From the NCBI GenBank assembly GCA_964388155.1, contig CAYLYH010000007.1:5679-69678 (forward strand): a stretch of DNA of 64,000 bases, read 5' to 3'. Of the stretch, positions 26,951 through 45,371 are shown piece after piece. The DNA is from an uncultured bacterium (GTDB lineage Bacteria > Fidelibacterota > Marinisomatia > Marinisomatales > JACNKV01). The number at the start of each line of letters is the position of its first letter. The first letter of the stretch is position 1. The notes below the pieces were generated by a model. The model did not search any database and had not been told where the DNA came from. It saw only the letters and a list, made by a program, of their open reading frames with translations. Both the position numbers and the translations under genes were made by a program.

Positions 26951-26960
26951 TTTTTTTCTC

Positions 26961-27776: not shown

Positions 27777-27815
27777 AGTGTTGTCCTTTTTTGTTTAATA
27801 ACCTTCTTGGTTATT

Positions 27816-27912
27816 GTCATCACTTGAGTGTAGTGGAACGAAACGAAGGATCTCTAATCAATCCTTTGTCTTACATCACTGTTTGAGATTCTTCGCTCCG
27901 CTCCAGAATGAC
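27816..27912. repeat. inverted pair of R2-like units between znuA and znuB
   Basis: GTCATCACTTGAGTGTAGTGGAACGAAACGAAGGATCTC (27816-27854, +) is paired with AGATTCTTCGCTCCGCTCCAGAATGAC (27886-27912, i.e. R2 on the minus strand). Confidence 0.6.
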
Positions 27913-27936
27913 ATACTCTATTGTATAAATTGTTGT

Positions 27937-28812: not shown

Positions 28813-28828
28813 AATTATTTTCCTTTCT

Positions 28829-28888
28829 GCCACAGAGTCACAGAGAAAAACACAAAAAGTATCTCCGTGTCCTCTGAGTCTCAGTGGC
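28829..28888. repeat. R3 (CACAGAG-type) imperfect palindrome
   Basis: GCCACAGAGTCACAGAG (28829-28845) faces CCTCTGAGTCTCAGTGGC (28871-28888). The element lies between the outer-membrane barrel gene and znuA. Confidence 0.7.
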
Positions 28889-28894
28889 TTAATT

Positions 28895-29914
28895 TTAAAA
28901 TTGGTGAGGTTTATGTGGACCTAACGCCCAAATAATTTGCCCCTTAACACCGAAATGAGTTTCTTCATCGCCATGCTGTTCTTGCGAAACAACAAGCCTA
29001 AATACAGATGATTCCTCCGCAGGACTGAAACCGGCAAACGCACCATACGATTTAAAAGAGTCTTCATCAATGTCAGAGGAAAAATCAGCAACAACGCCAA
29101 CGTTCCATTGTTTATTGAATTGGTAATTCATCCAGGTATATCCGGCTATTTTGTATTTGTTTTCTGGGTTTTCAATCGGACTTTTTCTGAAGACCTCTCC
29201 CTGCCACGTAAAAGATCGGTACGTGTTCGGTCTCCACTTAAATTTGAAATCCAGTTCAAAAACCTGATGTAAATGCGGTAGTTCATGGTTTTCGATATCA
29301 CGATAATAGCCACTGCCGATTTCCAAATGGGTTACATCATTCAAATCCACAAAATGAGAAAGGCGGGCAGACATTGCCGTCGTCTTTTCGGTGTCCCCGT
29401 TGTGGGTAAGTTCTTCAACTTCTTCCTCCCCATGATCGCAACTCTCTCCCATCGCTTTGGTAAAATATCCGACGGAAAGTTTAGCATACCACGGTAACGG
29501 CAACAGCCAGTTTGGTTCTACTCCAAACGTTCCCCACATTTCATCGCCCAGCAAGTTTTTCATGGATGTTGGTGCATCAATGAAAAATAAAGTATGAGCA
29601 TGTTCTTTATTGATCTTGCCGATGTCAGGGCGAAACTTTCCTGTTCTTAGGCCCATGTTGAAGGGTAACCCGCGCTCGAAGGAAATCACGGCTTCTTCAA
29701 GATGGATGGCATTGTGGTCCGCATGTTTGTGCAGAAACACATCCGCTCTGGCAAACGGATTCACATATCCCTGGACGGCAACTTCCACTCCGGATGACGA
29801 GATGTTGCCCTCTTGGTCTGTTATCAAATCCCCGATAACGCTGATATCGGGATTTACCGTCGTTTGGGAAAACGCGACGGTAAACAATAGCGTAAGTAAA
29901 ATTGGTTTTTTCAC
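28895..29914 (-). CDS. putative outer-membrane beta-barrel protein with His/acidic loop, linked to the Znu genes
   Basis: The GTG at 29914 is preceded by AAGGAG. There is a signal peptide (KKPILLTLLFTVAFSQ), a CDHGEEEVEELTHNGD loop, many His residues and a C-terminal ALGPHKPHQF. Confidence 0.5.
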   Translation of the reverse strand: MKKPILLTLLFTVAFSQTTVNPDISVIGDLITDQEGNISSSGVEVAVQGYVNPFARADVFLHKHADHNAIHLEEAVISFERGLPFNMGLRTGKFRPDIGKINKEHAHTLFFIDAPTSMKNLLGDEMWGTFGVEPNWLLPLPWYAKLSVGYFTKAMGESCDHGEEEVEELTHNGDTEKTTAMSARLSHFVDLNDVTHLEIGSGYYRDIENHELPHLHQVFELDFKFKWRPNTYRSFTWQGEVFRKSPIENPENKYKIAGYTWMNYQFNKQWNVGVVADFSSDIDEDSFKSYGAFAGFSPAEESSVFRLVVSQEQHGDEETHFGVKGQIIWALGPHKPHQF

Positions 29915-29971
29915 AAAAAACTCCTTTTCAGTTATGATAAACAATCCTGCCAAGCAGGATGAAACAATGAA

Positions 29972-30307
29972 TTAAAGGAGGTCTTGCGGCGGGGAGCGGG
30001 AATTCCTGTCTGGGATTAATACGGATGTATACTCTTCCGTTTCAAAATAAAACTTAGCTATAACAAAGTTTAGTGTAAAAGTTTCTGTGTCTTGACTTTC
30101 ACCAACGGTGGATATCTGAGCAACTGCCCAAATACAATCCATACGATCATGGTGGTGGCTGTCGTCCTTGCATTCCACAGAACAGAAACTAACACCGGGT
30201 TTGGCGCCCAGATGATGCACATGCCCCAAATGACTTGTGCTGATGATGGAAAAAGCACTGAACCAAATGGTTAATAGGAATGAAAGTCCGGAACGAATAA
30301 ACTTCAT
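29972..30307 (-). CDS. small secreted His/Cys-rich protein (putative metal binding)
   Basis: A signal peptide is followed by HLGHVHHLG, CSVECKDDSHHHDRMDC. Confidence 0.45.
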   Translation of the reverse strand: MKFIRSGLSFLLTIWFSAFSIISTSHLGHVHHLGAKPGVSFCSVECKDDSHHHDRMDCIWAVAQISTVGESQDTETFTLNFVIAKFYFETEEYTSVLIPDRNSRSPPQDLL

Positions 30308-30321
30308 TTCATTTTGGCGAA

Positions 30322-30687
30322 CTACTCGCCCAGCTCTTTCAATAATTTAAATGTAAAAATTCCGGCATCATGCCGATCTTTCCATGACGGTTTAAGTCCG
30401 TATCGCCCGACATCTTCAATTTGGTTTAGCGTGTAGCTTTTATCTGTTTTTAGTTGAGGAATGCCTTTGTACACAGTTCCAAACACATCGGTTTCACCAC
30501 TGCAGTTTGCGCAAGGACATTCATCCCGCAGTTTTTTCAACGGAATAAAACTTTCCTTACCGCCATCCCACTTTATCAGTAAAATATTGTTGACGATCTC
30601 ATAGTCCATAATTTGTATTTTTAAATCAGCGCTCATCAGTGTTTGATTCCGTTCATAACAACCTGTAAATTTGCAGGTATTTTTCAA
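30322..30687 (-). CDS. DUF971 domain protein
   Basis: LLIKWDGGKESFIPLKKLRDECPCANCSGE...Y.L...W.D.HD.GIFTF matches the DUF971 pattern. The likely start is the ATG at 30636 (MSADLK). Confidence 0.7.
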   Translation of the reverse strand: MKNTCKFTGCYERNQTLMSADLKIQIMDYEIVNNILLIKWDGGKESFIPLKKLRDECPCANCSGETDVFGTVYKGIPQLKTDKSYTLNQIEDVGRYGLKPSWKDRHDAGIFTFKLLKELGE

Positions 30688-30975: not shown

Positions 30976-32355
30976 TTACTCCACCGGATTTAAATTCTCA
31001 TCCAGCTGATTTGATAGACGGTAGCGGACGATCCTCCTCATGGGCGTATCAACAACATAAACGATTCCCCTATTATCCACCGTAACCGCCCGAGGCTCTT
31101 CCAAAAGTCCTTTAACTTCTCGTGTATAAAATGTATCCACCGTTGTGGTATCTGTTCCACTGATAACGGTCATTGTCGTATCAACAATAATGTCTTGTAC
31201 CCCGACTTTACGAAAGAATTGTCCACCGGAATCAAATACCTGAATTTCTTGAGCATCCGTATTCGCAACATAAATCATTTGGTTGGCATCTACCGCAACA
31301 TCTTGCGGATGATTATACCGATCTAAATCCATAATATTATTGACACCCGGCTGAAAAACAGACGGATATTGTCCATTGTCCGGTTTGAGTTTATGCACCC
31401 CAAAAAACTCACCTGATTGCGTATAATATATTTGTCCGGCATAATCTACATCAATTCCTGTAGGTTGGTTTACTGTTCCTGCACCCGTTCCATAATCTTC
31501 GACAATATGATCAAAAACCCCATCATGCACCCATATTTCTTCACCCGTATTTAATCGTATCCTGTCAGTTCGCAGCCATCGAATTCGAAGGATGCGATTA
31601 TGATATTTATCCGTTACGTAAAATCCGTCTGCAGGTCCCTCAATAACCGATAAACCTGAAAACTCAGATTCTTCGCTCGCATAGTAAACATCTGAATAAT
31701 TATAGCGGGCAAGTGCTCCGTCATAAATCAGATGCAACGCCAATAAGGAATCTATTTGAAGCCCTGAAGAATCCCATACTGTTTCTGTCAAGCTCCAACT
31801 TGACCCATTCGCAAATTGACGCCAAGTCTCTGTATTCTGTTCCACGCTAGAATCGCCATACGCTTCATTAAAAAAGACGCCTGAAAGAGCAATCGCTTGA
31901 ATTCCGACATGGTTCCACAACTGATTCCAGCAAAATATTTGCTGTGACCCATCAATAAAAAGCACATTCATCTTATTGTCAATGTCCACATCAATGGGAG
32001 CGATATATGTTTCATTATACGTCAACTCTCTCAGCGATGAAAATCCATCGGGGATATCTCCATCTTGTTCAAGGACAAAAATACTATGACCGGCTGAGTC
32101 TGCAATAAAAACATATCCATCCTGCCCAATGGAAATCCCCACCGGAGACTGAAATCCGTATTCTTCCCCCCAAACCGGATTCACTCGTAAATAGGTGGTA
32201 TCTCCTGCAGAAAAACCGATATCAGAGCCCAGTCCCGAGGGCAATGCCATTTTATCAATACACGCAGCAAAAACAATTATTGCTCCGACACAGATTAATC
32301 CGAACCGACGTAGAAACAACATTAAATTAAACTGTTTAACACTTACTTTTTTCAT
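30976..32355 (-). CDS. NHL-repeat / six-bladed beta-propeller lipoprotein
   Basis: It has a lipobox (VFAAC) and repeated blades of the form P.G[IV].VD..G.IYV.D..n.RI. Its start overlaps the stop of the upstream gene by 4 nt. Confidence 0.7.
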   Translation of the reverse strand: MKKVSVKQFNLMLFLRRFGLICVGAIIVFAACIDKMALPSGLGSDIGFSAGDTTYLRVNPVWGEEYGFQSPVGISIGQDGYVFIADSAGHSIFVLEQDGDIPDGFSSLRELTYNETYIAPIDVDIDNKMNVLFIDGSQQIFCWNQLWNHVGIQAIALSGVFFNEAYGDSSVEQNTETWRQFANGSSWSLTETVWDSSGLQIDSLLALHLIYDGALARYNYSDVYYASEESEFSGLSVIEGPADGFYVTDKYHNRILRIRWLRTDRIRLNTGEEIWVHDGVFDHIVEDYGTGAGTVNQPTGIDVDYAGQIYYTQSGEFFGVHKLKPDNGQYPSVFQPGVNNIMDLDRYNHPQDVAVDANQMIYVANTDAQEIQVFDSGGQFFRKVGVQDIIVDTTMTVISGTDTTTVDTFYTREVKGLLEEPRAVTVDNRGIVYVVDTPMRRIVRYRLSNQLDENLNPVE

Positions 32356-33371
32356 TTCATTGATAATCCAATTGTGAATCTATTTGGATCTGTTAAGTGA
32401 ATAAAATTTGTATAGGCATAATCAACGGTTAGATTGAACAGCCCCAATGGAATATTCAATCCGACTCCAAAAGAATATTTCTTTTCAAACTCGTCTGATT
32501 CATTCAGATTAAATCCACCCCGTAAAAAAATCATGTCAATAACCGAATATTCAATTCCTGCCGATATATTTTCAGCATTGTCCACAGGGTGATTCAACTG
32601 AATCGTCGCTGTTATAGTTTGCACCTTTGTCTCAAAAACATTCATAGCAACACCAACACGAAATACTGTCGGAGGAGAAAATGGCTCAAATTCTGTTTCA
32701 ATAATACTCTCTTCCCCTGTATCCGGGTTCAACGTTCTTTTTTCATAAGTTCCGTCGGGCTTGGCTTGCCCACCAAAATGTGATAGTGATGCTGAAAATC
32801 GCAAGGACTTAAAACCCGTCCAATAAAATGTTCCCATATCCAATAACGCTACCTGCATTATGTTGCCGGCAAGGTTCTCACTGACTAACTTCCCCGTAAT
32901 ACCAAAGCTAAATCTGTCTGTCATTTTCACTCCATAGACTAACCCGATAACGGTATTTTGAAATACAAAATATTTGCCGGTTCCATGAGGAAGATATTCT
33001 GTGGTCTCCTGCATGGGTGCCATGTGAAGAATTCCGGCAGTAACACCAAGATAATGGCGCTGGTACACCTTTTTAGACACCGCAAAGAAATCATAATAAA
33101 TGTCCGCCGGCCACCTGACATGAGATGCTGTCATTTCCATTGGGCCAAGTTGAGCAATTATTCCAGGATTATAATACATAGATGCCGCATTCTGCTCTAA
33201 CGCCACAACAGATTCTCCCATACCGACCGCACTCGCACTCACACCAATATTCAAAAATGTAAGCACAGACGTACCTGCACGCTGTCCTCCTAACACCGGA
33301 AAGATGTTCTGTCCCCCAACTTCAGATAAAAGACTGAGGATACTCATGATGATTAACATCCGAATATTCAT
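32352..33371 (-). CDS. PorV/PorQ-like outer-membrane beta-barrel (T9SS-associated family)
   Basis: After a signal peptide comes AGTSVLTFLNIGVSASAVGMGESVVALEQNAASMYYNPGIIAQL, which matches the PorV/PorQ N-terminal signature (FL.I..sAR..gMG...va...da.s...NPA). The start shares 1 nt with the TBDR stop. Confidence 0.7.
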   Translation of the reverse strand: MNIRMLIIMSILSLLSEVGGQNIFPVLGGQRAGTSVLTFLNIGVSASAVGMGESVVALEQNAASMYYNPGIIAQLGPMEMTASHVRWPADIYYDFFAVSKKVYQRHYLGVTAGILHMAPMQETTEYLPHGTGKYFVFQNTVIGLVYGVKMTDRFSFGITGKLVSENLAGNIMQVALLDMGTFYWTGFKSLRFSASLSHFGGQAKPDGTYEKRTLNPDTGEESIIETEFEPFSPPTVFRVGVAMNVFETKVQTITATIQLNHPVDNAENISAGIEYSVIDMIFLRGGFNLNESDEFEKKYSFGVGLNIPLGLFNLTVDYAYTNFIHLTDPNRFTIGLSMK

Positions 33372-36193
33372 CAGAAATACACCTGGACACCTAATTCAGC
33401 CGTAAATGGTTTTCCTGTTCGAGATGGGTCATAGTTTGGATTTGGAGCATCTATCATAGAATACGGGATAATTTCTCCGGGATCATATCCGCGCCCCGTG
33501 AACGAGTTAATCCGTCTGGGGACGTTTTCATTGAATATATTTTCAAACTCAATAAATATTTTCATTTTTATTTGACTAAAATGAAACGTCTTGAAACATT
33601 TTATATCAACCATGGAATATCCTTTGATATTGTCCAACCCCAACATCTGAAAAAGTTTTGGTGAATACTCACTAAAATAGTCATAAGGATTATCATTTTC
33701 ATACGTTCCGATATAATATGTTTCACCATTGATTTCAATCAATCCATCTGGATATTCATGTGTCCCCGGAATAGAGCGGGTATAACGTCGATTCGAGGCA
33801 AATTCAAATCGTGAAGACACTCCCCATCCTGAGGTGTGGTTATAATACAAATTACTAGAGAATTGGAAAGGTTTATCCCATCTCATAAAATTTTCACCCA
33901 AAGGTTTTTCATGTAACTCACCGGACTGAACCAAAAGATTATCCAAAACAGATGAACTTTTCCCGGTTACAATGGAATAATTAAAATTCAAATCGGCGTA
34001 CCAGTGTTTGAATAGACGGCTTTTTAAAATAACCTCTATCCCGCGTGCGCGTGCATAGTCTGCATTGAAGTACATATTAAATTTTAAATGAGAGTATTTC
34101 GGATTTGAAGGCGTTATCGTCTGAGAAGTCTCATAGTCAAACATGTCTTTCCAATAAGCTTTAACCTCCAGAACCTGATCGGGATTGAAGCGATGTTTTA
34201 CACCCAACTCGTATTGCACCGTGGTTTTGGGATTAAGGTTCGGATTCCCGAAAATTTGGTATGTCGATTGTGCTCTGGAATTTAATTTCGCATACACATA
34301 CTGAAATGTTGGCAACTGAGAAAAATGCCCATAATAAAAATACAGCACATCGTTATCTGTTACAGGATGAGAAATTCCGATTCTGGGGCTAAGCCTGCCT
34401 TTTCCTCTGTAACCGAACATATTAAATGTTTCATCTATAAATTTATCTCTTGCGACATCGGTAATAATGACTGCATTTGTATCGTTAATTGCATTTTCGA
34501 CATACTTACCGGGGAACCAATAATCATATCTCAGACCAAGGTTTGCCGTCATCCCCTCAAACGTGATTTGATCTTGTAGATACATCGCTCCAAAAACTGT
34601 CCGCGCAGAATAGATATCATAATTCGCTCCTAATCCGGTTCCTCCGTTCCAAGGTTCATCTATATCAAGAACCTGAATATCCGTAACCGTGTTTTCGACT
34701 CCGGTTTTGATTTTATGACGAGTCGCCGTATGATACGTCCAGTCCCAGTCAAAACGATAATTATCACTCACAACGTCATACCATTCCGGAGCAAATCCCG
34801 TGTCATAAAACTCATCTCCGTAGGTAATTCGTGTGTGACCGTCGTCATCATAAACAATGTAATGAGTCGGATCCAGATCCAACCGCTCTCTATACTCTGT
34901 CCAATGCAGATCCTGCACAGCACTGTGTTCCATGGTTAAGAAGCGTCCAAGGGTCATTTCATAAAACGAACGGGTGTTGAGTGTGTGAACCCAATGGAAG
35001 TTCAACAACCGGGTTTCCCGGGTAATGGTGTTGTAATTATCCAATATTTTTTCATAACTATATGGATAATATGTGGATGAAAAAGCTCGGGACATAAAAT
35101 ATCCCTGATTAATATTGAACGAAAGATCATAAGATAAACTGAGTTTCTTTTTTTTTGCAATGTCCCATGTTAATTTATAAAGAAAATGCCAATCATTATT
35201 TTCTCTGGGAGCAAGGGATTGCATGATCTGATCGGCTGCCCTGTCCGTCATGCCCGGTAGTGTTGACCAATTTCTGTGTGGATATAATTGTGTAGCGACA
35301 GGGAGATGACTGTCGAAACTTTTTCCGTAACCATTCAAAAACACGGAAAATGAACCGGGGAGATCTATCCCGAATTTCTTCAACAGAACTTCTGCTACAG
35401 GAGCAGGTCCACCGAGGGTAAATTCAAGTCGATCAGACATATCCAATGCATTGATCTGTTTAGACAGCCCCCAATGATCACTCATATATTTTATTGTTCC
35501 TTCAAAATGATCCATGCCGCGCTTAAGTTTGATATTGACAACCCCGGACATAGCTTGCCCATACTCAGCATTATATCCTCCGGTAATTATTTCCAGATTC
35601 TCTATGGCATCCGCATTCACAAATAAATTTCCTGAATACCCAGACAGCGGATCTTTGATCGACAATCCGTCCACAATAAATAAACTTTCATCAATCCTGC
35701 CGCCACGAATGTGGATTTCATTATCCTGCTTAGTAACCCCCACTTGTTCTGCCAAGATATCTTCCACACTTGATACGGATTTATTACTGATTTCGTCGCT
35801 GGTAATTCTGGAAATCGAAGAAGTTTCATTTGCATCAAACAATGGTTTATCCCCAATAACAACAACTTCTTCGCCAATCGTCAGTACCGTTTCTTCCATT
35901 GTGAAAGCCAAAGATGTCGTCGTTCCGGGGGTAACACGAATACCTGTTTGCAGAAGAACTTTATAACCCATCATGGTTGCTTCAACGTCATACGTTCCGG
36001 GATTTACATTCTCGATTCGATAATGTCCATCCAATCCGGTAGCTGCACCATAGTATGTCCCGCGAATCATAACATTAACACCAATCAGCGGTTCTCCCGT
36101 CTTGCCATTGATTGTATTTCCTGCGATTCGTCCTTTTTCCTGTCCAAAGACAAGGCACGGCAAGAGGAATATAGCGACAAGGTTTAATTTCAT
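33371..36193 (-). CDS. TonB-dependent receptor with CarboxypepD_reg-like domain
   Basis: Contains GRIAGNTINGKTGEPLIGVNVMIRGTYYGAATGLDGHYRIENVNPGTYDVEATMMGYK, a plug (IHIRGGRIDESLFIVDGL) and a barrel ending in LGVQVYF. The start overlaps the upstream stop (ATGA). Confidence 0.9.
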   Translation of the reverse strand: MKLNLVAIFLLPCLVFGQEKGRIAGNTINGKTGEPLIGVNVMIRGTYYGAATGLDGHYRIENVNPGTYDVEATMMGYKVLLQTGIRVTPGTTTSLAFTMEETVLTIGEEVVVIGDKPLFDANETSSISRITSDEISNKSVSSVEDILAEQVGVTKQDNEIHIRGGRIDESLFIVDGLSIKDPLSGYSGNLFVNADAIENLEIITGGYNAEYGQAMSGVVNIKLKRGMDHFEGTIKYMSDHWGLSKQINALDMSDRLEFTLGGPAPVAEVLLKKFGIDLPGSFSVFLNGYGKSFDSHLPVATQLYPHRNWSTLPGMTDRAADQIMQSLAPRENNDWHFLYKLTWDIAKKKKLSLSYDLSFNINQGYFMSRAFSSTYYPYSYEKILDNYNTITRETRLLNFHWVHTLNTRSFYEMTLGRFLTMEHSAVQDLHWTEYRERLDLDPTHYIVYDDDGHTRITYGDEFYDTGFAPEWYDVVSDNYRFDWDWTYHTATRHKIKTGVENTVTDIQVLDIDEPWNGGTGLGANYDIYSARTVFGAMYLQDQITFEGMTANLGLRYDYWFPGKYVENAINDTNAVIITDVARDKFIDETFNMFGYRGKGRLSPRIGISHPVTDNDVLYFYYGHFSQLPTFQYVYAKLNSRAQSTYQIFGNPNLNPKTTVQYELGVKHRFNPDQVLEVKAYWKDMFDYETSQTITPSNPKYSHLKFNMYFNADYARARGIEVILKSRLFKHWYADLNFNYSIVTGKSSSVLDNLLVQSGELHEKPLGENFMRWDKPFQFSSNLYYNHTSGWGVSSRFEFASNRRYTRSIPGTHEYPDGLIEINGETYYIGTYENDNPYDYFSEYSPKLFQMLGLDNIKGYSMVDIKCFKTFHFSQIKMKIFIEFENIFNENVPRRINSFTGRGYDPGEIIPYSMIDAPNPNYDPSRTGKPFTAELGVQVYF

Positions 36194-37773
36194 TCTGAAA
36201 ACACGCCGTTTAAAAGATAATCAATAAATTTTGAAGCAGAACCATTCCCTTCTAAAAGAGGTGTGTTCCCATTATGCAGCGGAATTGTTAACAAGACGAT
36301 ATCACCGGACATTTCTGAAGATGAAAGCCATTGAAACTGGCCACGGCTGCAAACATTGGGGGTTCCTGTCCACGTGTCTATACTTCCTTCCGGTTCTTGC
36401 AGCCAATATAAATCCTCTGCTGTAAAACGCATGGAATTATCGATGGTGTCCCCATTCGCCGGCTCAAACCCTTTTACGCGAATTGCAATTAGCCGTGAGG
36501 TTTCTAAGTCCATGTCCTCATACATATCGGTCGAATCTTGAAACATCAATGTTCGCCCGGAGATTAACCGTCCGTTTGTATTCAGGACAAAGGTTGAATC
36601 CAAAGGGAAAAACGGATAGGTAGTGTCCTTTAGTTCTATTGCATTTAAAAATAGGTTTCCGCCGGCTAAAACATAATTTAAAATATGTGCACCGGCATTT
36701 GGGAATGTTTCAATTCCTGTATATGCCGTAAACCAAATCACATGATTAAAATAGTTTAAATTTGCAGAAATATCGACAGAGGAATACGGAAGCTTATCCC
36801 CAATTTCCCAAACAGAACATTGGTTTTCACCCAAAATATCATCCACCACTCCCTTATACCAATTCAAAGCATTGTTTTGGCTGTCTTGTGTAAAGTCATC
36901 CACGATCAAGACCTCTCCGTTTACAGGCATCACTCTCCAATAATTCGGTTCGTTCTCATTTAAAATATCTGGGAACCGGGCAATGTCGCTCTCTGCTCCG
37001 GCTATATCTCTGGCTTTAATATAAAATGTATGAAAACCCGGATCTATATCTGTTAACGTAATACTGGAATACGACGCAGCCTCTAACTGTGTCCAATTTG
37101 AATCACTTGTGTCATCCAACGCATAAAATAAATCGATGATGGTTTCTACTCCGTCCAAATCTTGAATATCCCAAACGAACGTACGCGTCGGGAATGTAAA
37201 ACTAGTGTCAGTCGGGATATCTGCAAGCAAGGGATTGCTTTGATACCGAAACTCAATTAGTGGCGACGAGTTGTGGATGGGCAACACAATTTTTGCCGGA
37301 GTAACATCTATTAAGCTGTCACTGTCAACAGCTCTGACTTCAAATGTAAACACATCTATTTCTTTACGAATGGGCACAAAAAAGATTCCGGATTCTTCAG
37401 ATGTAAACGTCCAAACCGAATCCACATTCCAGCGATACCAATACCCAATGATATCTCCGTCACTATCCTCACCCCACCAGCTTAACGTTTGTTTACTGGT
37501 TGTTACCGTTGAAAAGGCATGGGTCAGCGTATCCAGTACGATATCGTTTCCCGGCACGTTCTCAAGATAATAAATCCATTCACCGGTTACGGAATCTTGC
37601 GAGGCGTAAATTGTATCCGTTGCAACCAAAGAAAGAAATGTCTCCGGTGCTTGGTTTTCCACCGGCATAGATGGATCGTCGTAATCCCACAATGAGCAGG
37701 ACACAATGAATAGTATGGCTAAAATAAATATGTATTTTCGGGTAAACATAGATAAGCATATTGCGGGGGACAA
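36190..37773 (-). CDS. hypothetical lipoprotein
   Basis: It has a lipobox (FIVSC). The N-terminal half looks like two Ig-like modules (WWGEDSDGDIIGYWYRW...; FVWDIQDLDG...FHTFYIKARD). The C-terminal half is unassigned. The alternative ATG at 37749 is equally plausible. Confidence 0.55.
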   Translation of the reverse strand: MSPAICLSMFTRKYIFILAILFIVSCSLWDYDDPSMPVENQAPETFLSLVATDTIYASQDSVTGEWIYYLENVPGNDIVLDTLTHAFSTVTTSKQTLSWWGEDSDGDIIGYWYRWNVDSVWTFTSEESGIFFVPIRKEIDVFTFEVRAVDSDSLIDVTPAKIVLPIHNSSPLIEFRYQSNPLLADIPTDTSFTFPTRTFVWDIQDLDGVETIIDLFYALDDTSDSNWTQLEAASYSSITLTDIDPGFHTFYIKARDIAGAESDIARFPDILNENEPNYWRVMPVNGEVLIVDDFTQDSQNNALNWYKGVVDDILGENQCSVWEIGDKLPYSSVDISANLNYFNHVIWFTAYTGIETFPNAGAHILNYVLAGGNLFLNAIELKDTTYPFFPLDSTFVLNTNGRLISGRTLMFQDSTDMYEDMDLETSRLIAIRVKGFEPANGDTIDNSMRFTAEDLYWLQEPEGSIDTWTGTPNVCSRGQFQWLSSSEMSGDIVLLTIPLHNGNTPLLEGNGSASKFIDYLLNGVFSE

Positions 37774-37798
37774 AACGCCCCCCGCATTTTATCGACTC

Positions 37799-40700
37799 CT
37801 ATCGAATCAGCATCATTTTTTTATAATCAACAAAGTTTCCGGCTTTGATTCGGTAAAAATATGCACCGGATCCAACCATTTGATGTTTATCATTCTTTCC
37901 ATCCCATGTCAGGATGTGTGTTCCACTCGTAAACTCATTATTTACAAGTGTACGAACTTGTCTGCCAAGAACATCGTAAATCACCAATCGAACCGGACTA
38001 TCCGTCCTCAAGCTAAACCGAATTTGTGTCTCCGGGTTAAAAGGATTGGGATAATTGTGGTACAATGCAAATTCATTGGGTGTCGCTCCGTTGTCATCAA
38101 TACTCACCTGCGTATACACAATATCTGATGCATAGAGCGGACATAGTTTATAGGCAGTGGAATCTGCATAACTCCCAAAGTGATGATACACCCACCCGCG
38201 AATGGAATCAACCTGTGTGTCCACGGGCGGCGGGCCTACAGCTTCAAAATAAACTTCTACACTATCGGAGTCATCATCTATCAACGCAGCACCCGACCCG
38301 TCATCAACTGCAAAGACTTCATAGAGTAAATCATTGTTGGTCACAATACCGTCTTTGATTTTTACCATGACTGTTCCCCATTGTTCGGCTTCAGTCGGCC
38401 AGCGTAAATCACCGGTGGCCACAACAGGTTCTGCAGGCATATTTAATCCCATATCAACAAGATCAACGGGTTCCGTAATGAATAACTCTGTCATGTTAGA
38501 CCCCGCAGTTGCATACTCAGAAATGAACCCTGTAGCCAGAATGAGATCACCTTCAAATAAAACAGGGAAGGCACTGCTGTCGGGATCGTAGGACAAAATA
38601 CCGCTCCAGGGACCGCCGTGCGAATCTGCAAAAATGAACTTTACACCATCTCCGGCATAACTTAATCCTGTGGGCATTGTAACTATTCCGACAATGGTAA
38701 CAGTATCCCCCGCAAAGTAAGACATATCAGACTCTGAATCCGTTGCTGTTTTCAGTAAATCACTATACAACACCTGTTGGATATACTGAATGCGCACGGC
38801 TCCGTCTTCTTTCACATCTCGGGCAAGACGCGGTTGAATCTTGGTATTGCTATAACCATAATCAAGGACACCGACGACTTCAGCTAAGGCTTGTCCTGCC
38901 TCAGGCCAATAGTAATAATCCCAATTATCGTCCACGCGTACAGAGTTACTGCCGTCGGATACAGACCATTCGCCATATCCAAGGTCTGCTTCGTCTACGG
39001 TTACGTCTGTCAGTTTAACCAAAACACCTTCATAAGCTTCTGCACCGGTACCGTCTGACATAATTTGATCAGGCGCAACGTCCAAAGGATGGATTACTCC
39101 TCCTGCAGGACCGTACACCACCACATCTGTGACATTAGTGATTTCGGTTTTTCCGTAGTATTCAACCACTTCACCAATGACAACGACACTGTCACCTTCG
39201 GCTAAAGAGGTTACAACGTCCCCGAGTGCATTATGCAGTTCGAAGTTATCCCAACCACCGTATTCGAAAACAACAATTCCGCAGTAGGGCGCTTCGTCAT
39301 CCTGAACATAAAAATTCCGATTATCGGATCCACCCCAGAATTCAGCAGTGACAATCCCTCCGACGGTCACTATTTGCCCAACCAAAGGGGAATCCCCTGA
39401 TGGATCATCCGTGTACTGGATATCATATATCGCGGTGAGAGACTCGGGCGCATGAACCACATAAATGTAATTCTCTGAAAAAACCGTGTCATTCACTCCG
39501 TCATCTGCCTGGATGTAAAACGTAACTAACGCAGCATCCGTCTGTGCCGGAATGTCTCCTGTAAATGTCATTCCGTCATCACTTGTCATCTCAACAGGAA
39601 TCAAATCACCATCATCAACCGTGTAAACGAGTGATGCCGTCAAAGAACCATCGTCCACTATTTCAGCAGTAATGGTCACAATATCATCCGGCGTGGGATT
39701 CTCCGGAGCATACACCACATTCGTAATCACAGGTGTTATATCTCCCAGCACAACAATGTCGGAATAGAATCGTGGCAGAATTTGATACCCGGAATCATAC
39801 GGGTCACTCGAATCATACTGACCAGAAATTCCGGTCAATTCGAATGTTCCTTGTGGTTCCATTCCTTCATCAACATCTGTATCTTTATCCACCCGCATCG
39901 TTACGGTGGTATCACTAATATCTGTAATTGTCAGATTCGCATCGCTACCGGAATTTGGCCATGTTCCATCAAATATTGTCGCTGTCATGATTCGAAGTAT
40001 TTCCGATTCATACGATTCCGGGTTTGCCAGAAATTCCGCTATCGTTACTTCCTGAGCGGCTGGAAGCAGATTTCCCTGACTTATGATTGTAATATCCGCT
40101 ACATCAGCGGGGACAATTTCTGCTTTACCATTGTAATTCTCAATCACGCCGGTTACGACAATAAAATCACCAATTTGCAGATCCATCGTTTCGCCATATT
40201 TAAACAACGCTATCCCGCCTGTGGCATCCTGTAAACCGTAATCAATTCGGTTAGATCCCCAGACAGGAGTCGTAATAAATCCCTGCGTTGAAACGACGGT
40301 CCCTTCGGCGGCATTGCGGGCATCGTATATTGATACCATGTTTTCGTCAGGTGTTTCTATGTCGGTTTGATACCGAGGAATAATCTGGTAGCCCTCATCC
40401 TGGGGTTCAGAATAATCATACTGACCTACTGTTCCCTTAAGATGGAAAAACCCAACCGGTGCCGGTCCGTCATCCACATCCGAATGCCGGTCAACGCGAA
40501 GTGTCAATGCTGTAATTCCACCATCGTCAGAAATAGTCACGTTAGCATTATTGCCTGAGTCCGGCCAGTCTCCGGAAATGATTTCAACATTGAATACCTG
40601 CACAAGTTCAGATTCCAGTGACTCAGGAGCCGTTAACAATCCTGATAACGTCATGGATTGGAATTCCGGTAAATCATTCCCCTGGCTTTCTACAATCACA

Positions 40701-40999
40701 TCTCCGACAGCCTCGGGGACAACCTCAAGTTTACCGTTATAATTCTGAATTTCTCCTGTAACCGTCACAAGGTCACCCGGGAGTAATCCGGCGTCAAACT
40801 GGTTTGTGTAAATAATGATGGCAGCTGTTTCATCCTGAATGGTAAAATCACTTTCACCAGAACTACCCAGGTTGGGTGTGGTTACTATTCCGCTGGTGGT
40901 TACCGTATTCCCAAGCTCCAACCTTGCTTCCGCAACGGTCAGAGTTTGCGCCAGAGAAACCGACACACCAACCATCAATATGATGAGCATTTTCTTCAT
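37799..40999 (-). CDS. large T9SS cargo protein with four OB-fold-like repeat modules and a C-terminal sorting domain
   Basis: The ATG at 40999 is preceded by AAGGAGA, and a signal peptide (MKKMLIILMVGVSVSLAQ) follows. The repeated core is G.VTTP...f.iQD..ggI......gD.v.VtG.i..YnGK.Ei.P. The C-terminus YHNYPNPFNPETQIRFSL...GAYFYRIKAG...MMLIR is a classic Por secretion tail. Confidence 0.8.
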   Translation of the reverse strand: MKKMLIILMVGVSVSLAQTLTVAEARLELGNTVTTSGIVTTPNLGSSGESDFTIQDETAAIIIYTNQFDAGLLPGDLVTVTGEIQNYNGKLEVVPEAVGDVIVESQGNDLPEFQSMTLSGLLTAPESLESELVQVFNVEIISGDWPDSGNNANVTISDDGGITALTLRVDRHSDVDDGPAPVGFFHLKGTVGQYDYSEPQDEGYQIIPRYQTDIETPDENMVSIYDARNAAEGTVVSTQGFITTPVWGSNRIDYGLQDATGGIALFKYGETMDLQIGDFIVVTGVIENYNGKAEIVPADVADITIISQGNLLPAAQEVTIAEFLANPESYESEILRIMTATIFDGTWPNSGSDANLTITDISDTTVTMRVDKDTDVDEGMEPQGTFELTGISGQYDSSDPYDSGYQILPRFYSDIVVLGDITPVITNVVYAPENPTPDDIVTITAEIVDDGSLTASLVYTVDDGDLIPVEMTSDDGMTFTGDIPAQTDAALVTFYIQADDGVNDTVFSENYIYVVHAPESLTAIYDIQYTDDPSGDSPLVGQIVTVGGIVTAEFWGGSDNRNFYVQDDEAPYCGIVVFEYGGWDNFELHNALGDVVTSLAEGDSVVVIGEVVEYYGKTEITNVTDVVVYGPAGGVIHPLDVAPDQIMSDGTGAEAYEGVLVKLTDVTVDEADLGYGEWSVSDGSNSVRVDDNWDYYYWPEAGQALAEVVGVLDYGYSNTKIQPRLARDVKEDGAVRIQYIQQVLYSDLLKTATDSESDMSYFAGDTVTIVGIVTMPTGLSYAGDGVKFIFADSHGGPWSGILSYDPDSSAFPVLFEGDLILATGFISEYATAGSNMTELFITEPVDLVDMGLNMPAEPVVATGDLRWPTEAEQWGTVMVKIKDGIVTNNDLLYEVFAVDDGSGAALIDDDSDSVEVYFEAVGPPPVDTQVDSIRGWVYHHFGSYADSTAYKLCPLYASDIVYTQVSIDDNGATPNEFALYHNYPNPFNPETQIRFSLRTDSPVRLVIYDVLGRQVRTLVNNEFTSGTHILTWDGKNDKHQMVGSGAYFYRIKAGNFVDYKKMMLIR

Positions 41000-41084
41000 A
41001 CCTATCTCCTTCTTAGTTATGTCTTTCATCAAACAATCCATCTCCCGTACGAATGATCTTTTGTCGGATTGTTATTGTCAGACA

Positions 41085-43235
41085 CTATTTAATGATCAGA
41101 AATTTACCCTCCTTAACTTTTCCATAGGATAAGCTTTCATGATCCAAATTTTCTACGGTAAATAAATACAGCCCGGAAGCCGTCGCCTGATCGTATCGTG
41201 TGATCATATCCCACGCATGCTCTCCTCCGCTGAACTGTGGATATTTGTTCTCGTCAATGTTTTTGACATCCCCCCCCGCATAGGTTATATCATGATGTAA
41301 AATATCTACCAAATCACCTGCTAAGGTAAAAATTCTTATTTCTGCTTTTTGGGGGAGATGATTGAACCAAATGATTTTTTCACGGCTGCTATATCCGTCC
41401 CACAGTGCTTGTCCCCGATAAGGGTTTGGATAGACGGACGGTGAATCTGTCCATGCTCCTGTTTGAGGTTTTACCCCGGGGTAAACAAATTGCCGGTTAG
41501 CATAAAGCGAACTTTCTAAGCTCAATAGATTTGCCTCCGGATCGCCGCGGTCAAACGCTGTAACTGCATAATAATTCAACCAGCCATTTTTCACGCCATC
41601 ATTAACAAAACGGTAATGATAATATTCTCCATCAATTTCGATACTGTCCGGCTCACCATAGATATTCGCAATGCGCACCGGACTAAATCCTGAGTTATAT
41701 CCTACATTTCCTGATTCACCGTCCACTTTGTCAAATTCTCCAAGCAGTGAGAATTCAATATCAGTATCTGTGGAGGTTTTCCGCGCGCCGTATATTCGAT
41801 AGCCTTCAAAATCTTTCTCTCTGCTAATTGGATCTATAAAGGATTCTGCATTATTCTGCCAATAAATTGCGACAGATTTGTCGCTGACATCAATGGCAAC
41901 ATTCGGGACAGGTGGAGGCTCAGGTAAAATATATCGGTCAATGATTCCATTTTCATTCAGGTCTTCGTTGATGTCTAATATATTATTTCGGTTTTTATCC
42001 TCTCCGTCATACGCTTTTTGTGCCCAATCTGCATTCACATAAAGATTGGTACGGCGTTCGGGAGAATCCTCAGTAGAGCCATCCCATCGCGCCGCAACCA
42101 CTGCCATCACAATATTACAGGAGGAATCCGGAGGAAGCTGCCAATCCGCGGAATCTGCGGAGGTCGGCTCGCTGCCAAAGGGACCGGCAGACACTAAAAA
42201 CAACCAGCTGTTGGTATTGTTTGGATATCCGTCTGAATTATACAACTCAGGGTCTGTGCCGAGCGGAACATCCGATGTCATTTTTTCGTATCGTTCCGCG
42301 TCTGTCAATGGCATATTGTATGCAGGGTAATCTGCGTTATTTGAATTTGTCCACACCCATTGATTGTAATGCGTTTGAAGATAGGATTTCGGGACGGTAC
42401 TTCCCAACATTGTTATCCCGATATAAGATTCCGCCCAACCATCATCACCATCTGCATCGTATTGATATGCAATATCTCTCGTAAATCCGGATTCATCAAC
42501 CGAACGATCAAACCCATCAAGATTGTCATACCATGAAAATCCGCCTCCCGGTGTGTATGTATCTGTATAATTCATGTTTGCAACGGAAGCATCTGTCCAT
42601 ATTCCGGCGTAGAGATTATTAATCATTTCATTTGAACGATTGGTAATTGTGTAGTTTAAAACCACAAAGGCATCTGCAAATGAAAAATTCCAAGCATACG
42701 ACTCCAATTGGATATCAATACCTAATGGCGTGTGTTCGGTGATATTGTTATTATCACCCGGAGTTAAGCCATAATCCCGAAAATGAGTTAGAAAGTCCTG
42801 ATGAGAAACAGCATAAGGAGAAAAATATTGCGCCATCGAATCTTGTGACGTCGATGAGATGGATGATCGTATCTGAAGGTCTGATTCGGCAAACAATTCA
42901 AATCCTTCATCGCCGGAATCAAATACACCATCCACAATGGCGGTAGATACGCGCCGTTCCTCGTTGACAACACCACCAATCCAAAGTCCTGCAAATGAAA
43001 AATGTTCTACTTGCTCCCGCTGAATTTCTGTGTGTTGTTTATATTGACAGGAGGGTAGGATTTTTCCGTTGATTTTATTCCATCCGTTTCCAAGTATCCC
43101 AAAATTTGTTACCGTCAGCCCCAATTGACCAACGGATGTATATTGATCAAAAATATCCTCCGCATATTGGGCATGCAATGCCAGGGGAAGACAAACGGAT
43201 AGCACTAATTGAAGTATGAGAATCTGATTCTTCAT
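41085..43235 (-). CDS. hypothetical secreted protein with FN3-like module and T9SS-type C-terminal domain
   Basis: The ATG at 43235 opens MKNQILILQLVLSVCLPLALHAQ. A Ca-binding-like DKNRNNILDINEDLNENGIID loop is present. AIDVSDKSVAIYWQ...FEGYRIYG looks like FN3. The C-terminus is VYPNPYRG...IRIFTLAGDLV...SGLYLFTV...GKFLIIK. Confidence 0.65.
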   Translation of the reverse strand: MKNQILILQLVLSVCLPLALHAQYAEDIFDQYTSVGQLGLTVTNFGILGNGWNKINGKILPSCQYKQHTEIQREQVEHFSFAGLWIGGVVNEERRVSTAIVDGVFDSGDEGFELFAESDLQIRSSISSTSQDSMAQYFSPYAVSHQDFLTHFRDYGLTPGDNNNITEHTPLGIDIQLESYAWNFSFADAFVVLNYTITNRSNEMINNLYAGIWTDASVANMNYTDTYTPGGGFSWYDNLDGFDRSVDESGFTRDIAYQYDADGDDGWAESYIGITMLGSTVPKSYLQTHYNQWVWTNSNNADYPAYNMPLTDAERYEKMTSDVPLGTDPELYNSDGYPNNTNSWLFLVSAGPFGSEPTSADSADWQLPPDSSCNIVMAVVAARWDGSTEDSPERRTNLYVNADWAQKAYDGEDKNRNNILDINEDLNENGIIDRYILPEPPPVPNVAIDVSDKSVAIYWQNNAESFIDPISREKDFEGYRIYGARKTSTDTDIEFSLLGEFDKVDGESGNVGYNSGFSPVRIANIYGEPDSIEIDGEYYHYRFVNDGVKNGWLNYYAVTAFDRGDPEANLLSLESSLYANRQFVYPGVKPQTGAWTDSPSVYPNPYRGQALWDGYSSREKIIWFNHLPQKAEIRIFTLAGDLVDILHHDITYAGGDVKNIDENKYPQFSGGEHAWDMITRYDQATASGLYLFTVENLDHESLSYGKVKEGKFLIIK

Positions 43236-43565
43236 TGATGAAGCAATGCAAACTATATCCCAGCAGAATTCTAATAAAATACTGGGGGACAAATTACAGC
43301 TTTGGAGTACGGGAGTCAATCAATACCGACACAAATCCTCATTAGTTTGGGCAATGATAAACCGCCTGTTTAAAGGTAGCGGACAGGGAATATTAGAACC
43401 TGTAATTTATCCGGAAGACATTACTGTTAAGGAAATAATTTTCAGGGTGAATAAGTATAATAAAAATAGTGTTAATCGCTATTTTTCTAATATGCACAGT
43501 GGTTAATTGTTCTTATTTTCTATCGTGTTTTTCTTCTCTTATCCACACAATAAACAAGGACATTT

Positions 43566-44753
43566 ATGGGACATCTTCTCGATTCAAATCACACATTAGT
43601 TCCGCTCATCGATCGGCTGAATAAATATCCGATCGGCGTGGTAGACAGTGAAATCCTCAGAGAATTATTATCACTGCTGTTTTCAGAGGAAGAAGCCTTC
43701 GTTGCTTCAAAATTCCCCTTAACAGAAGCCACACTAAAAGAACTCTCCATAGCAACAAAGATGGAGGAGGGAGACCTCTTGCCGGTGTTAGAATCCATGG
43801 CGGATAAAGGGATTATCATGGATTTACCCTATAACGGAGGAGTGTTTTATTTGCTCATGCCCGGGACTATCGGGTTTTTTGAATTCACGTTTATGAAAAA
43901 CCGCACGGACCTTCCGCTTGAAAAAGTGGCAAAACTGATGGATGAGTATTTTACCGACAGAGAAAAAGGGCACGGTCAGGAATTTTTCGGGAGCAAAACA
44001 CCTCTGACACGCTCACTCCCCTACCAGGAACATATTCCGGTAACCAGTGTCATTACAGATTATGAAAGTGCCCGCAACATTATTAAAAATGCAAAGTTTG
44101 GTGCGGTAAGTATGTGTTATTGCCGCCATCAAAAAGAGCATACCGGCGGTACCTGTAAAAAAGGGGCGCCAGTGGAAGGAATTTGTATCTCCCTGGGGAC
44201 AGGAGCAACCTTTTTAGCCCGGCGAGGATTTGCAGAAGAAAAAACTAAAGATGAACTTTTGAAGATCATTGAAAAAGCTCACCAATTAAATCTGACGCAT
44301 ATCACGGATAATGTTCGCAATAAACCGACGTTTATCTGCAATTGCTGCGGGTGCTGCTGCCATATTATGGAAGGAATCCAAGCCGGGTATATCAACGGTG
44401 TGGGGAAAACCAACTATCTGGCAACGATTAATCCCGAATTGTGCGACTATTGCGGAGAATGTTTTACCGCATGCAATCCTCATGCAATCGGTTTGGATAA
44501 ATCCAAAGATTATAAAAACAGAGCCGACAGAAAGAGTCGGGTAAATACGGACATATGTTTAGGATGCGGAGCCTGTATTTCATCCTGTAAACACGGAGCG
44601 ATCTCCCTGATCCCGCGCGAAAACCCACCAAAATTAATTGAAAGAAAACGGGATTTGTTTAAAACCATCCTCCGCGAAAAAGGGCGATTAAACCCGTTTA
44701 TCATTGAGGGAATAAAGAAAAAAGTTAAACGAACGTTTCGAATACAGGGATAA
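43566..44753 (+). CDS. 4Fe-4S dicluster protein with additional Cys-dense motif
   Basis: It has two ferredoxin motifs (CDYCGECFTACNPHAI; CLGCGACISSCKHGAI), plus CYCRHQKEHTGGTC and CNCCGCCCH. The N-terminal 130 aa are unassigned. Confidence 0.75.
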   Translation: MGHLLDSNHTLVPLIDRLNKYPIGVVDSEILRELLSLLFSEEEAFVASKFPLTEATLKELSIATKMEEGDLLPVLESMADKGIIMDLPYNGGVFYLLMPGTIGFFEFTFMKNRTDLPLEKVAKLMDEYFTDREKGHGQEFFGSKTPLTRSLPYQEHIPVTSVITDYESARNIIKNAKFGAVSMCYCRHQKEHTGGTCKKGAPVEGICISLGTGATFLARRGFAEEKTKDELLKIIEKAHQLNLTHITDNVRNKPTFICNCCGCCCHIMEGIQAGYINGVGKTNYLATINPELCDYCGECFTACNPHAIGLDKSKDYKNRADRKSRVNTDICLGCGACISSCKHGAISLIPRENPPKLIERKRDLFKTILREKGRLNPFIIEGIKKKVKRTFRIQG

Positions 44754-44949
44754 AACAATAGGCTAAGTTCCCTGATATACAACACATGGTTGGATGTGCG
44801 GTAATTAATCTTCATTCACTCTACGCTTCTCTATGAATGATAAATTCATTACGATTGACAAGGTGGTGAGTGGTTTTTACCGTCATGCTCTGATCACCAT
44901 ATTTCCTTTTTCCTAAGAGAATGATTGGTCAAAAAAACAAACCACTATA

Positions 44950-45039
44950 TCATCCCGAAGCTTACAGTCCCGGGCACGTCTTCAGATTCCGCCTTAGGGT
45001 AACACGAAGTGTCGTGAGAAGAATGACTGAGGGATCTAC
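44950..45039 (-). repeat. R1 repeat, third copy (reverse orientation)
   Basis: The reverse complement reads GTAGATCCCTCAGTCATTCTTCTCACGACACTTCGTG...CCCGGGACTGTAAGCTTCGGGATGA, with a 28-nt internal insertion related to the one in the 18627-18737 copy. Confidence 0.8.
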
Positions 45040-45098
45040 GTAATTAAACCTGATACAATTGAATAAAACACAAAACTTAACTCTGCATACAAAAAATG

Positions 45099-45125
45099 TA
45101 GATTCTTCACTCCGTTCAGAATGAC
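45099..45125 (-). repeat. R2 repeat copy (reverse orientation)
   Basis: TAGATTCTTCACTCCGTTCAGAATGAC is the reverse complement of GTCATTCTGAACGGAGTGAAGAATCTA. Confidence 0.75.
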
Positions 45126-45318
45126 AGTGTTTTTTTTGATCATTATAAAACCCTAAAGGGAGCAGACGGACCCGCCGCTATGCTCTCGGCAGGCGGATCG
45201 AAATGACAGCGACAGGTGAATAGTAGAATTGGTTGATTAGATACACAATGCTGTGATGAACCTTAAATAAGAATATTTATAATTAAGGGATACACTGCAT
45301 AACTTAATTATATATTAT

Positions 45319-45368
45319 TATATTTAAGATACATATTGCTTTACTTAAATATAAAATGTTATATTTAA
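45319..45368 (+). promoter_or_regulatory. operator-like triple TATATTTAA motif directly upstream of the Fic gene
   Basis: TATATTTAAG (45319-45328) has an exact inverse, CTTAAATATA (45344-45353). A third direct copy, TATATTTAA (45360-45368), ends 3 nt before the GTG start. Confidence 0.4.
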
Positions 45369-45371
45369 AGT

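Follow-up and report, generated by a model that had tools for sequence, protein, structure and literature searches.

A conserved six-gene outer-membrane cluster of Marinimicrobia and its possible role in the capture and import of extracellular nucleic acid

What might a bacterium do with a secreted array of OB folds that is encoded together with a TonB-dependent receptor and a PorV/PorQ-like barrel, with no recognisable enzyme among them? The question is raised by six genes, here named g1 to g6 in order of transcription, on the minus strand of a 64-kb stretch of contig CAYLYH010000007.1 (assembly GCA_964388155.1) from an uncultured bacterium of the Marinimicrobia (Neomarinimicrobiota / Fidelibacterota). 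This whole stretch is referred to as the window, and coordinates are given relative to its first nucleotide. By our annotation g2 and probably g1 are cargo of type IX secretion (T9SS), g3 and g6 are lipoproteins, g4 is the TonB-dependent receptor (TBDR) and g5 is the barrel (Table 1). The answer that we favour, with a probability of roughly 0.55, is that the cluster forms a partly T9SS-delivered outer-membrane machine by which extracellular nucleic acid (DNA and possibly RNA) is caught, the polymer or its fragments then being imported through the TBDR. Its purpose would most likely be nutrition, i.e. the acquisition of phosphorus, nitrogen and carbon.

The argument begins with the repeated modules of g2. 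The family DUF5689 (PF18942) matches this protein at 44.3 bits (cut-off 28.6) in two stretches covering positions 17-217 of the 217-position model, the Pfam match spanning residues 38-228 of the uncorrected 1080-aa open reading frame (ORF). The tRNA_anti-codon OB family matches at 48.4 bits (cut-off 27), and the ExeM/NucH nuclease model NF033681 gives 61.6 bits, below its cut-off of 300 and over model positions 41-116 only; profile searches found no EEP domain in g2. The orthologue in locus L001 matches the ExeM/NucH N-terminal region at 95 bits in three stretches. The modules are also homologous to each other: A1 and A2 are 46% identical (E 1e-58), B1 and B2 are 27% identical (E 4e-14), and A modules match B modules with E values of 1e-10 to 1e-4. 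When a profile of 26 diverse g2-type modules was run against PDB, it matched residues 3-176 of Streptococcus pyogenes nuclease A (SpnA, PDB 9sf8/9sf9) at E 8.7e-9, followed by sub-significant matches to the OB folds of RPA32, STN1, RPA and YhaM. The 9sf8 chain consists of OB3, OB4 and the nuclease domain, and the authors of the structure, using the data of Chang et al., state that OB2-4 are needed for DNA binding during catalysis (PMC13601614). Given this homology to the SpnA OB region, each g2 module most likely forms a tandem-OB unit like those by which EEP nucleases are supplied with DNA. An earlier reading of the DNA letters without database searches (the sequence-only reading) had likened the OB-like modules to the N-termini of YhcR/ExeM-type nucleases, and the homology to the ExeM/NucH N-terminal OB region and to SpnA OB3-OB4 bears it out. 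In all lineages examined, the modules are the feature that the protein at the g2 position keeps, at 2-4 per protein (238 modules in 77 ORFs). Searches of plasmids with the modules by tblastn returned unrelated contexts only.

DUF5689 proteins are encoded with receptors of the g4 type in two systems that handle DNA. In Bacteroides thetaiotaomicron, the ddbABCDEF locus is needed for the depletion of exogenous DNA; DdbC (a TBDR, WP_008762511.1) and DdbD (DUF5689, WP_048698952.1) are its predicted DNA transporter, and in its model DdbD is similar to p202's tandem-OB HIN domain (Sharan et al., PNAS 2025; PMC12478041). In Riemerella anatipestifer, the carboxypeptidase-regulatory-like outer-membrane protein RA0C_RS04915 and the adjacent DUF5689 protein RA0C_RS04920 are both essential for natural transformation (PMC8459023). 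These two are homologues of DdbC and DdbD, respectively, and the ddb authors regard the two systems as evolutionarily related (PMC12478041). A Marinisomatota lineage has, moreover, been found in DNA-supplemented cultures (PMC8630151).

The enzymes encoded beside the cluster in other genomes point in the same direction. In relatives, the cluster is adjoined by the gene for a protein of ~580 aa that carries an EEP domain, a lamin-tail domain (LTD) and a type-A C-terminal sorting domain (CTD) of the T9SS; its catalytic motifs are intact and it matches the catalytic part of ExeM/NucH at E 8e-6. Of the 43 Marinimicrobia loci with enough flanking sequence, 27 have the nuclease gene directly upstream of g1. 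Directly downstream of g6 it is found in 5 of 51 loci, and it adjoins the cluster in 23 of the 32 loci for which both flanks are available. In locus L092 the cluster is directly followed by a PhoD-family phosphatase (15165-16568), and in L087 by a protein with an LTD, two DUF5689 domains and a CTD (15453-18338). Because a nuclease and PhoD associate with the cluster, nutrition is favoured over transformation. The nucleic-acid hypothesis of the sequence-only reading thus gains support from two sides, from the pairing of DUF5689 with a CarboxypepD_reg TBDR in the ddb and Riemerella DNA systems and from the EEP nuclease and PhoD beside relatives' clusters, the function itself being what these associations suggest. 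The description of the cluster as self-contained and without recognisable enzyme fared differently: it is valid for the subclade of the present genome but not for most relatives, because these carry the adjacent secreted nuclease gene.

The mechanism that we envisage is as follows. Proteins g1 and g2 would be exported by the T9SS via their CTDs, and g2 would display its four tandem-OB modules (~eight OB folds) at the cell surface, where they would bind polymer. The g5 barrel would hold one of the CTD proteins, or both, in place at the membrane beside the receptor, in the way in which PorV holds PorU and PorQ holds PorZ in the T9SS attachment complex; the basis for such tethering is co-occurrence, that in locus L088 (described below) included. 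With its FN3-FN3-alpha/beta architecture g3, and with its NHL propeller g6, might serve as accessory subunits of the receptor complex. In most relatives, the co-located T9SS-secreted EEP nuclease would cut the captured polymer, while in this genome the nuclease may be encoded elsewhere, or ready-made fragments may be imported. The product would then be moved into the periplasm by g4 with TonB energy. Observed are the gene content, the family memberships, the homology of the g2 modules to nuclease OB domains, synteny within the phylum and across lineages, and the association with a nuclease or PhoD. The identity of the ligand, the tethering of CTD proteins to the barrel, the formation of a complex, and the direction and fate of transport are all points that we infer.

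Several observations weigh against this reading. The g2 modules are very acidic (~34 D+E versus 6 K+R per 200 aa), which is odd for a polyanion binder, and the ligands of OB folds include oligosaccharides besides nucleic acids. The 64-kb window contains neither a nuclease nor a phosphatase, and neither is encoded beside the cluster in the nearest relatives, L003-L005. The relatives of g4 that were looked up (20 of the best 150) are all from uncultured metagenome-assembled genomes (MAGs), with no DdbC accession and no Bacteroides or Riemerella among them. No periplasmic or inner-membrane partner was identified for the cluster, g1, g3 and g6 are without a role assignment, and structural matches of g1 are limited to N-terminal non-catalytic beta-sandwiches of GH116, GH63 and GH65 glycoside hydrolases (TM ~0.2). 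As regards the charge of the modules, the nuclease adjoining the cluster in relatives is equally acidic, and so the acidity is probably a trait of the lineage; binding could also be bridged by cations.

The acidity of the modules, the binding range of OB folds and the lack of a nuclease in the window would also suit a T9SS-linked, SusD-less uptake of some other polymer or ligand (polysaccharide, peptide, glycoprotein of sinking particles or another polyanion), with the OB modules as oligosaccharide or other binders. The low-confidence model of g1 resembles N-terminal beta-sandwiches of carbohydrate enzymes, and a related TBDR and PorV-like pair is part of what is evidently a starch locus in L088. 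Nevertheless, we consider this explanation unlikely: no carbohydrate-active enzyme, peptidase or carbohydrate-binding module (CBM) family was found in the six proteins or in their orthologues from six lineages, nuclease OB domains and DUF5689 are what the modules are specifically related to in sequence, and the enzymes that adjoin the cluster belong to the phosphoesterases and not to the glycosidases or peptidases. Somewhat less probable again is that the same hardware takes up DNA for natural transformation, long DNA passing via g2 and g4 to ComEA/ComEC-type uptake and recombination, as proposed for R. anatipestifer. Loss of transformation in that species is the sole genetic evidence on a DUF5689/CarboxypepD_reg outer-membrane pair, the ddb authors take the two systems to be related, and a cluster without a nuclease, as in the window, fits the import of intact DNA. 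Degradation and phosphorus scavenging are, however, the better fit to a secreted nuclease of the non-specific EEP type beside most relatives' clusters and to PhoD beside one; moreover, ComEC, DprA and ComEA were not seen in the window, and even for Riemerella it is unproven that long DNA can cross a plugged barrel of 22 strands.

We give only a slim chance to the absence of import altogether, with the cluster as a surface structure or adhesin complex (for particles or matrix rich in extracellular DNA) or as an accessory or sorting module of the T9SS, and the TBDR-like barrel as an anchor or Oar-like exporter. Such a role is compatible with the presence of two CTD proteins and a PorV/PorQ paralogue, with a g1 CTD whose closest counterpart is in PorZ, a component of the T9SS, and with the position of the cluster a few genes from sprA in many relatives; an Oar-type TBDR is reported to be required for protein secretion in Myxococcus. 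Yet PorZ-, PorV- and PorQ-like genes of their own are already present in relatives beside SprA, the g4 plug is normal and typical of importers, no T9SS gene was found within the window to place the cluster near one, and the association with nuclease and PhoD indicates the processing of a substrate. Import of nucleic acid or its fragments for nutrition remains the reading that we prefer.

Table 1. Features of the six-gene cluster in window coordinates
Feature	Coordinates	Strand	Description
g1	41085..43235	-	716 aa; signal peptide, N-terminal beta-supersandwich (low confidence), acidic Ca-binding-like linker, fibronectin type III (FN3)-like region, divergent T9SS CTD
g1 C-terminal domain, aa ~598-716	41085..41444	-	Divergent T9SS CTD with two insertions
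g2	37799..40999	-	1066 aa; signal peptide, four homologous ~200-aa DUF5689/tandem-OB modules, one immunoglobulin (Ig)-like domain, CTD
g2 modules A1 (aa 19-218), A2 (aa 219-418)	39746..40945	-	DUF5689-type
g2 modules B1 (aa 519-730), B2 (aa 731-965)	38105..39445	-	ExeM/NucH-N-terminal type
g2 type-A T9SS C-terminal sorting domain	37799..38104	-	TIGR04183
GC-rich hairpin GCGGGGGGCGTTTTGTCCCCCGC	37763-37785	-	After the g2 stop, 14 nt 5' of the likely g3 start; stem detected
g3	36190..37749	-	519-aa lipoprotein; two FN3/Ig-like domains, then alpha/beta C-terminal domain
g4	33371..36193	-	940-aa TBDR; carboxypeptidase-regulatory-like N-domain 35861-36127, plug 35540-35827
g5	32352..33371	-	339-aa PorV/PorQ-family outer-membrane barrel
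g6	30976..32355	-	459-aa NHL-repeat beta-propeller lipoprotein; lipobox; PF01436 62.6 bits

How far is the cluster conserved? Named homologues of its proteins belong to Marinimicrobia. A one-genome-per-species scan detected relatives of g3 in 274 genomes, and tblastn of the six proteins was run on 80 of those loci. All six genes were found in 45 of the 80, with order and strand identical in 44; the lone exception in order, L081, retains two blocks, g3-g6 and g1-g2. When g4 was used for an exhaustive search, followed by look-ups of genomic context, the same six-gene architecture emerged in at least five more distant lineages: L083/L084 (from a MAG labelled Bacteroidota), L085, L087, L089 and L092. 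Across these distant lineages, identity is 30-40% for g4, 32-40% for g5 and 34-45% for g1, and g3 and g6 are weakly similar. Gene order, the conservation of which the sequence-only reading had proposed as a check on its claims, is thus kept throughout the phylum and beyond. Reduced forms also occur, with g3-g4-g5-g6 alone in L086 and a TBDR with an NHL protein in L093. Two sub-modules can therefore be distinguished, a T9SS cargo pair (g1-g2) and a translationally coupled outer-membrane block (g3-g6). With more than 1000 homologues of g1, 299 of g3 and relatives of g3 in 274 species-representative genomes, homology indicates that the six genes are real.

In L001 (1-9901) and L002 (1-9849), as in many Marinimicrobia, the cluster is located just downstream of a conserved run of genes that starts with sprA. 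The run continues with an M28 peptidase, an unknown gene, a PorZ-like protein (553 aa), a PorV-family protein (314 aa), a PorQ-like protein (287 aa), Polysacc_deac_2, Asparaginase_II and the EEP nuclease, and looks like a compact operon for the T9SS translocon and attachment complex. In the window, this sprA-type upstream context is replaced. The gene directly upstream of g1 is a divergently transcribed one for a 4Fe-4S dicluster protein (43566-44753), beyond which a Fic/DOC protein is encoded at 45372-46502 and a DNA/RNA helicase of the Schlafen-group-3 type at 47336-49300. The region 43566-49300 could be an inserted defence or mobile island at the position where relatives carry the nuclease and SprA genes.

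A different kind of relative is found in L088 (8051-19551), in a MAG labelled Bacteroidota. In this SusD-less, starch-type locus, an alpha-amylase is encoded together with a TBDR that shares 27% identity with g4, a 1091-aa protein whose CTD is of the g1 type, a protein with CBM20 and a T9SS CTD, and a 340-aa PorV-like barrel 25% identical to g5. Because the related TBDR and PorV-like pair is located here with an alpha-amylase and a CBM20-CTD protein, the combination of TBDR, PorV-like barrel and CTD cargo suggests a general uptake platform that is defined by its cargo. A broader proposal, which we put forward tentatively and hold to be doubtful rather than probable, is that these loci represent an unrecognised class of TonB uptake systems in the Fibrobacteres-Chlorobi-Bacteroidetes (FCB) superphylum. 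In this class, T9SS cargo binders would be held at the receptor by a dedicated PorV/PorQ-like barrel via a retained PorZ-like CTD, replacing the SusD/lipoprotein partner. The six-gene version with the OB array would be a core, phylum-wide harvester of DNA and RNA in Marinimicrobia and a major route of dissolved-DNA turnover in the dark ocean, and sister loci such as that with amylase and CBM20 would use the same platform for other polymers.

In the window, the six genes form a genuine operon. Six co-directional minus-strand ORFs fill 30976-43319, or 30976-43235 after correction of starts, confirming the 12.3-kb array of six genes described by the sequence-only reading. The three start/stop overlaps that it listed read exactly as claimed, i.e. 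ATGA at the g3/g4 junction (36190-36193), TGATG at g4/g5 (33371) and ATGA at g5/g6 (32352-32355), while short spacers separate g1 from g2 and g2 from g3. Its corrected sizes of ~716 and ~1066 aa for the two largest products are likewise sound, since ATG 43235 and ATG 40999 each yield a standard signal peptide. The hairpin after g2 divides the cargo pair from the tightly overlapped g3-g6 block. It might set different expression levels for the two, and attenuation or an effect on mRNA stability can be imagined as its role. Downstream the cluster is bounded by an opposite-strand tRNA-Val, and upstream by the divergent 4Fe-4S gene. Matches to sigma-70 promoters were not above those in shuffled sequence (36 versus 37.3 expected, in a scan that did not include FCB promoters); terminator-like matches were ~2x the shuffled expectation (20 versus 9.8), with none assignable to the ends of the operon.

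Family scores, and for g1 a profile-profile comparison, uphold the cast of the cluster as first described, i.e. a TBDR, a PorV/PorQ paralogue and two T9SS cargos, with no SusD and no enzyme: searches with Pfam and NCBIfam profiles assigned none of the six proteins to a glycoside hydrolase, peptidase, nuclease or SusD family. Profile and structure searches also placed neither cargo in a characterised enzyme or adhesin family, an outcome that would have spoken against the first description. In g4, PF13620, PF13715 and the plug family PF07715 score above their cut-offs (48 bits versus 23.9 for the plug) and TBDR subfamily models match residues 318-803, and orthologues match the barrel families PF14905 or PF00593. 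The SusC/RagA model TIGR04056 fails, with 64.4 bits against a cut-off of 368 and a match to the N-terminus only. A search among representative sequences recovered 27477 relatives of g4, of which the nearest full-length ones are in uncultured lineages. A second, stand-alone receptor with CarboxypepD_reg and Plug domains (929 aa, window 18800-21589) has no partner genes, and resembles g4 at the N-terminus only (24% identity).

The barrel g5 matches the PorV_fam model NF033709 at 164.5 bits (cut-off 90) over positions 1-326 of 326, but fails the equivalog models for PorV (NF033710, 45.8 versus 250), PorQ (NF033711, 63.5 versus 220) and PorV2 (52.9 versus 325). Judged by these scores, it is a paralogue distinct from canonical PorV and PorQ, separate genes for which, along with a PorZ-like one, are carried beside SprA in relatives.

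That both large products end in Por-secretion-tail domains was also part of the sequence-only reading. For g2 this is evident from TIGR04183 (38.2 bits for the whole protein and 43.9 for the isolated domain, cut-off 23), with PF18962 at 25.3 bits, below its cut-off of 27. For g1 it emerges from profile-profile comparison only. Single hidden Markov models place the g1 CTD below cut-off (TIGR04183 13 bits, E 0.07; PF18962 13 bits), the best match being the CTD of PorZ (E 6.5e-5, also below threshold), whereas hhalign aligns it with type-A CTDs at 97% probability (E 8.5e-11) with two insertions; we therefore regard it as a divergent T9SS CTD. By analogy with PorZ, this insertion-bearing domain may be the best candidate for a retained anchor, and a CTD of the same type is carried by the 1091-aa protein of the starch-type locus.

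Searches of PDB by sequence and profile found nothing for g1, g3, g4 or g5, and g1 and g3 are also without a Pfam or NCBIfam match, even when divergent orthologues are included. Over its best 120 clusters, with more than 100 clusters from Marinimicrobia, g1 is 63-96% identical, with many invariant acidic, aromatic and histidine residues. Its AlphaFold2 model, built from 36 homologues, is poor (pLDDT 55). The glycoside hydrolase matches that Foldseek found with this model are too weak to assign function, and we reject a glycosidase because the (alpha/alpha)6 catalytic domain is not present. For g3, the most likely start is ATG 37749, which provides a lipobox cysteine that is invariant among its homologues. 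Its model is better (pLDDT 82.6), with Foldseek matches to generic FN3 tandems only. The PDB matches of g6 are to the NHL propellers of TRIM71, TRIM2 and Brat, at the level of the repeat only. These propellers are RNA-binding domains; a likeness confined to repeats may mean nothing for g6.

On the other side of tRNA-Val, on the same strand as the cluster, the region 25805-30687 encodes a DUF971/GBBH-like_N protein, two unclassified ORFs (111 and 352 aa) and a metal ABC importer of the ZnuA/ZnuB/ZnuC type. We reject a functional tie between the cluster and these ZnuABC genes, because the opposite-strand tRNA-Val intervenes and the pairing is not seen in relatives. Elsewhere in the window, a 615-aa ORF (9231-11078) is without a Pfam match at E <= 1e-4.

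In the deep and oxygen-poor ocean, Marinimicrobia (SAR406) rank with the most abundant bacteria. They are almost entirely uncultured, and ideas on how they feed are for the most part deduced. In these waters, DNA, both dissolved and bound to particles, makes up a large store of organic phosphorus and nitrogen. If our reading is true, the cluster would provide a concrete mechanism for marine DNA turnover, together with a marker gene set for that mechanism. It would also extend the DUF5689/TBDR principle of DNA uptake beyond Bacteroidota, and add a new design of TonB-dependent complex in which T9SS-delivered binders and a PorV-like barrel take the place of SusD-type lipoproteins. Two large families without Pfam or NCBIfam assignment, g1 and g3, would gain testable roles. 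The cluster is phylum-wide and mechanistically unusual, and its function is the part that is deduced. A literature search found no published description of this six-gene cluster.

Known systems resemble the cluster in parts. Like the PorU-PorV and PorZ-PorQ pairs of the T9SS, it combines a PorV/PorQ-family barrel with CTD proteins, and the CTD of g1 comes nearest to PorZ's retained one. In contrast to these pairs, g5 is translationally coupled to a TBDR and not to secretion components. That the cluster is the general T9SS attachment complex of this genome, as the PorZ-like CTD of g1 might suggest, we reject as the main reading, because relatives have separate PorZ-, PorV- and PorQ-like genes by SprA. 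Nor is it the canonical complex, since in addition the equivalog models do not recognise g5. With the SusC/SusD polysaccharide utilisation loci (PULs), it shares the logic of surface binders, often a surface enzyme, and a co-transcribed TonB importer, as well as a receptor N-domain that is carboxypeptidase-regulatory-like. It is not a SusC/D PUL, because SusD is missing and g4 scores below the cut-off of the SusC/RagA model; in addition, the binders are T9SS cargo and not lipoproteins, and a PorV-like barrel is integral and conserved. The surface-anchored OB-nucleases, i.e. ExeM/NucH of Shewanella, SpnA of S. pyogenes and YhcR of Bacillus, carry before the EEP domain an OB region homologous to the g2 modules (shown for ExeM/NucH and SpnA), and g2 of relatives carries the lamin-tail domain typical of ExeM/NucH. 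Because g2 has no EEP domain, the cluster is not an ExeM/NucH nuclease; here, the OB array and the EEP nuclease are found on separate T9SS cargo genes, and g2 is coupled to a transporter.

The closest parallels are the two systems with DUF5689 proteins. The Riemerella pair also consists of a carboxypeptidase-regulatory-like outer-membrane protein encoded with a DUF5689 surface protein, and has a nuclease gene as a neighbour, as do many of the relatives described here. Its role in transformation is demonstrated, whereas any such role of the cluster is conjectural. RA0C_RS04920 combines DUF5689 with DUF5017 and has no reported T9SS CTD, and neither a PorV-like barrel nor an NHL lipoprotein has been reported in Riemerella. 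A search with a DUF5689 module of L087 for named DdbD-like proteins of Bacteroidota gave no matches, and g4 is likened to DdbC and RA0C_RS04915 by the shared CarboxypepD_reg-TBDR architecture alone. The ddb locus is likewise a PUL-like outer-membrane locus of six genes with no SusD, and combines a TBDR with a DUF5689 protein of predicted tandem-OB DNA binding. Secreted nucleases are part of that locus, and one adjoins the cluster in most Marinimicrobia relatives. The two differ in that the window has no nuclease gene, and in that ddb has a single DUF5689 protein, DdbD, for which docking on DdbC is predicted, where g2 is a four-module T9SS type-A cargo. Proteins g1, g3, the PorV/PorQ-like barrel and the NHL lipoprotein are conserved extras with no identified ddb counterpart, in a different phylum. 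In terms of family assignments, then, what is shared with ddb and Riemerella is the DUF5689 family and the receptor architecture; what is new is a multi-module binder delivered as T9SS cargo, four extra conserved components, occurrence in other phyla, and a nuclease that is separable from the cluster.

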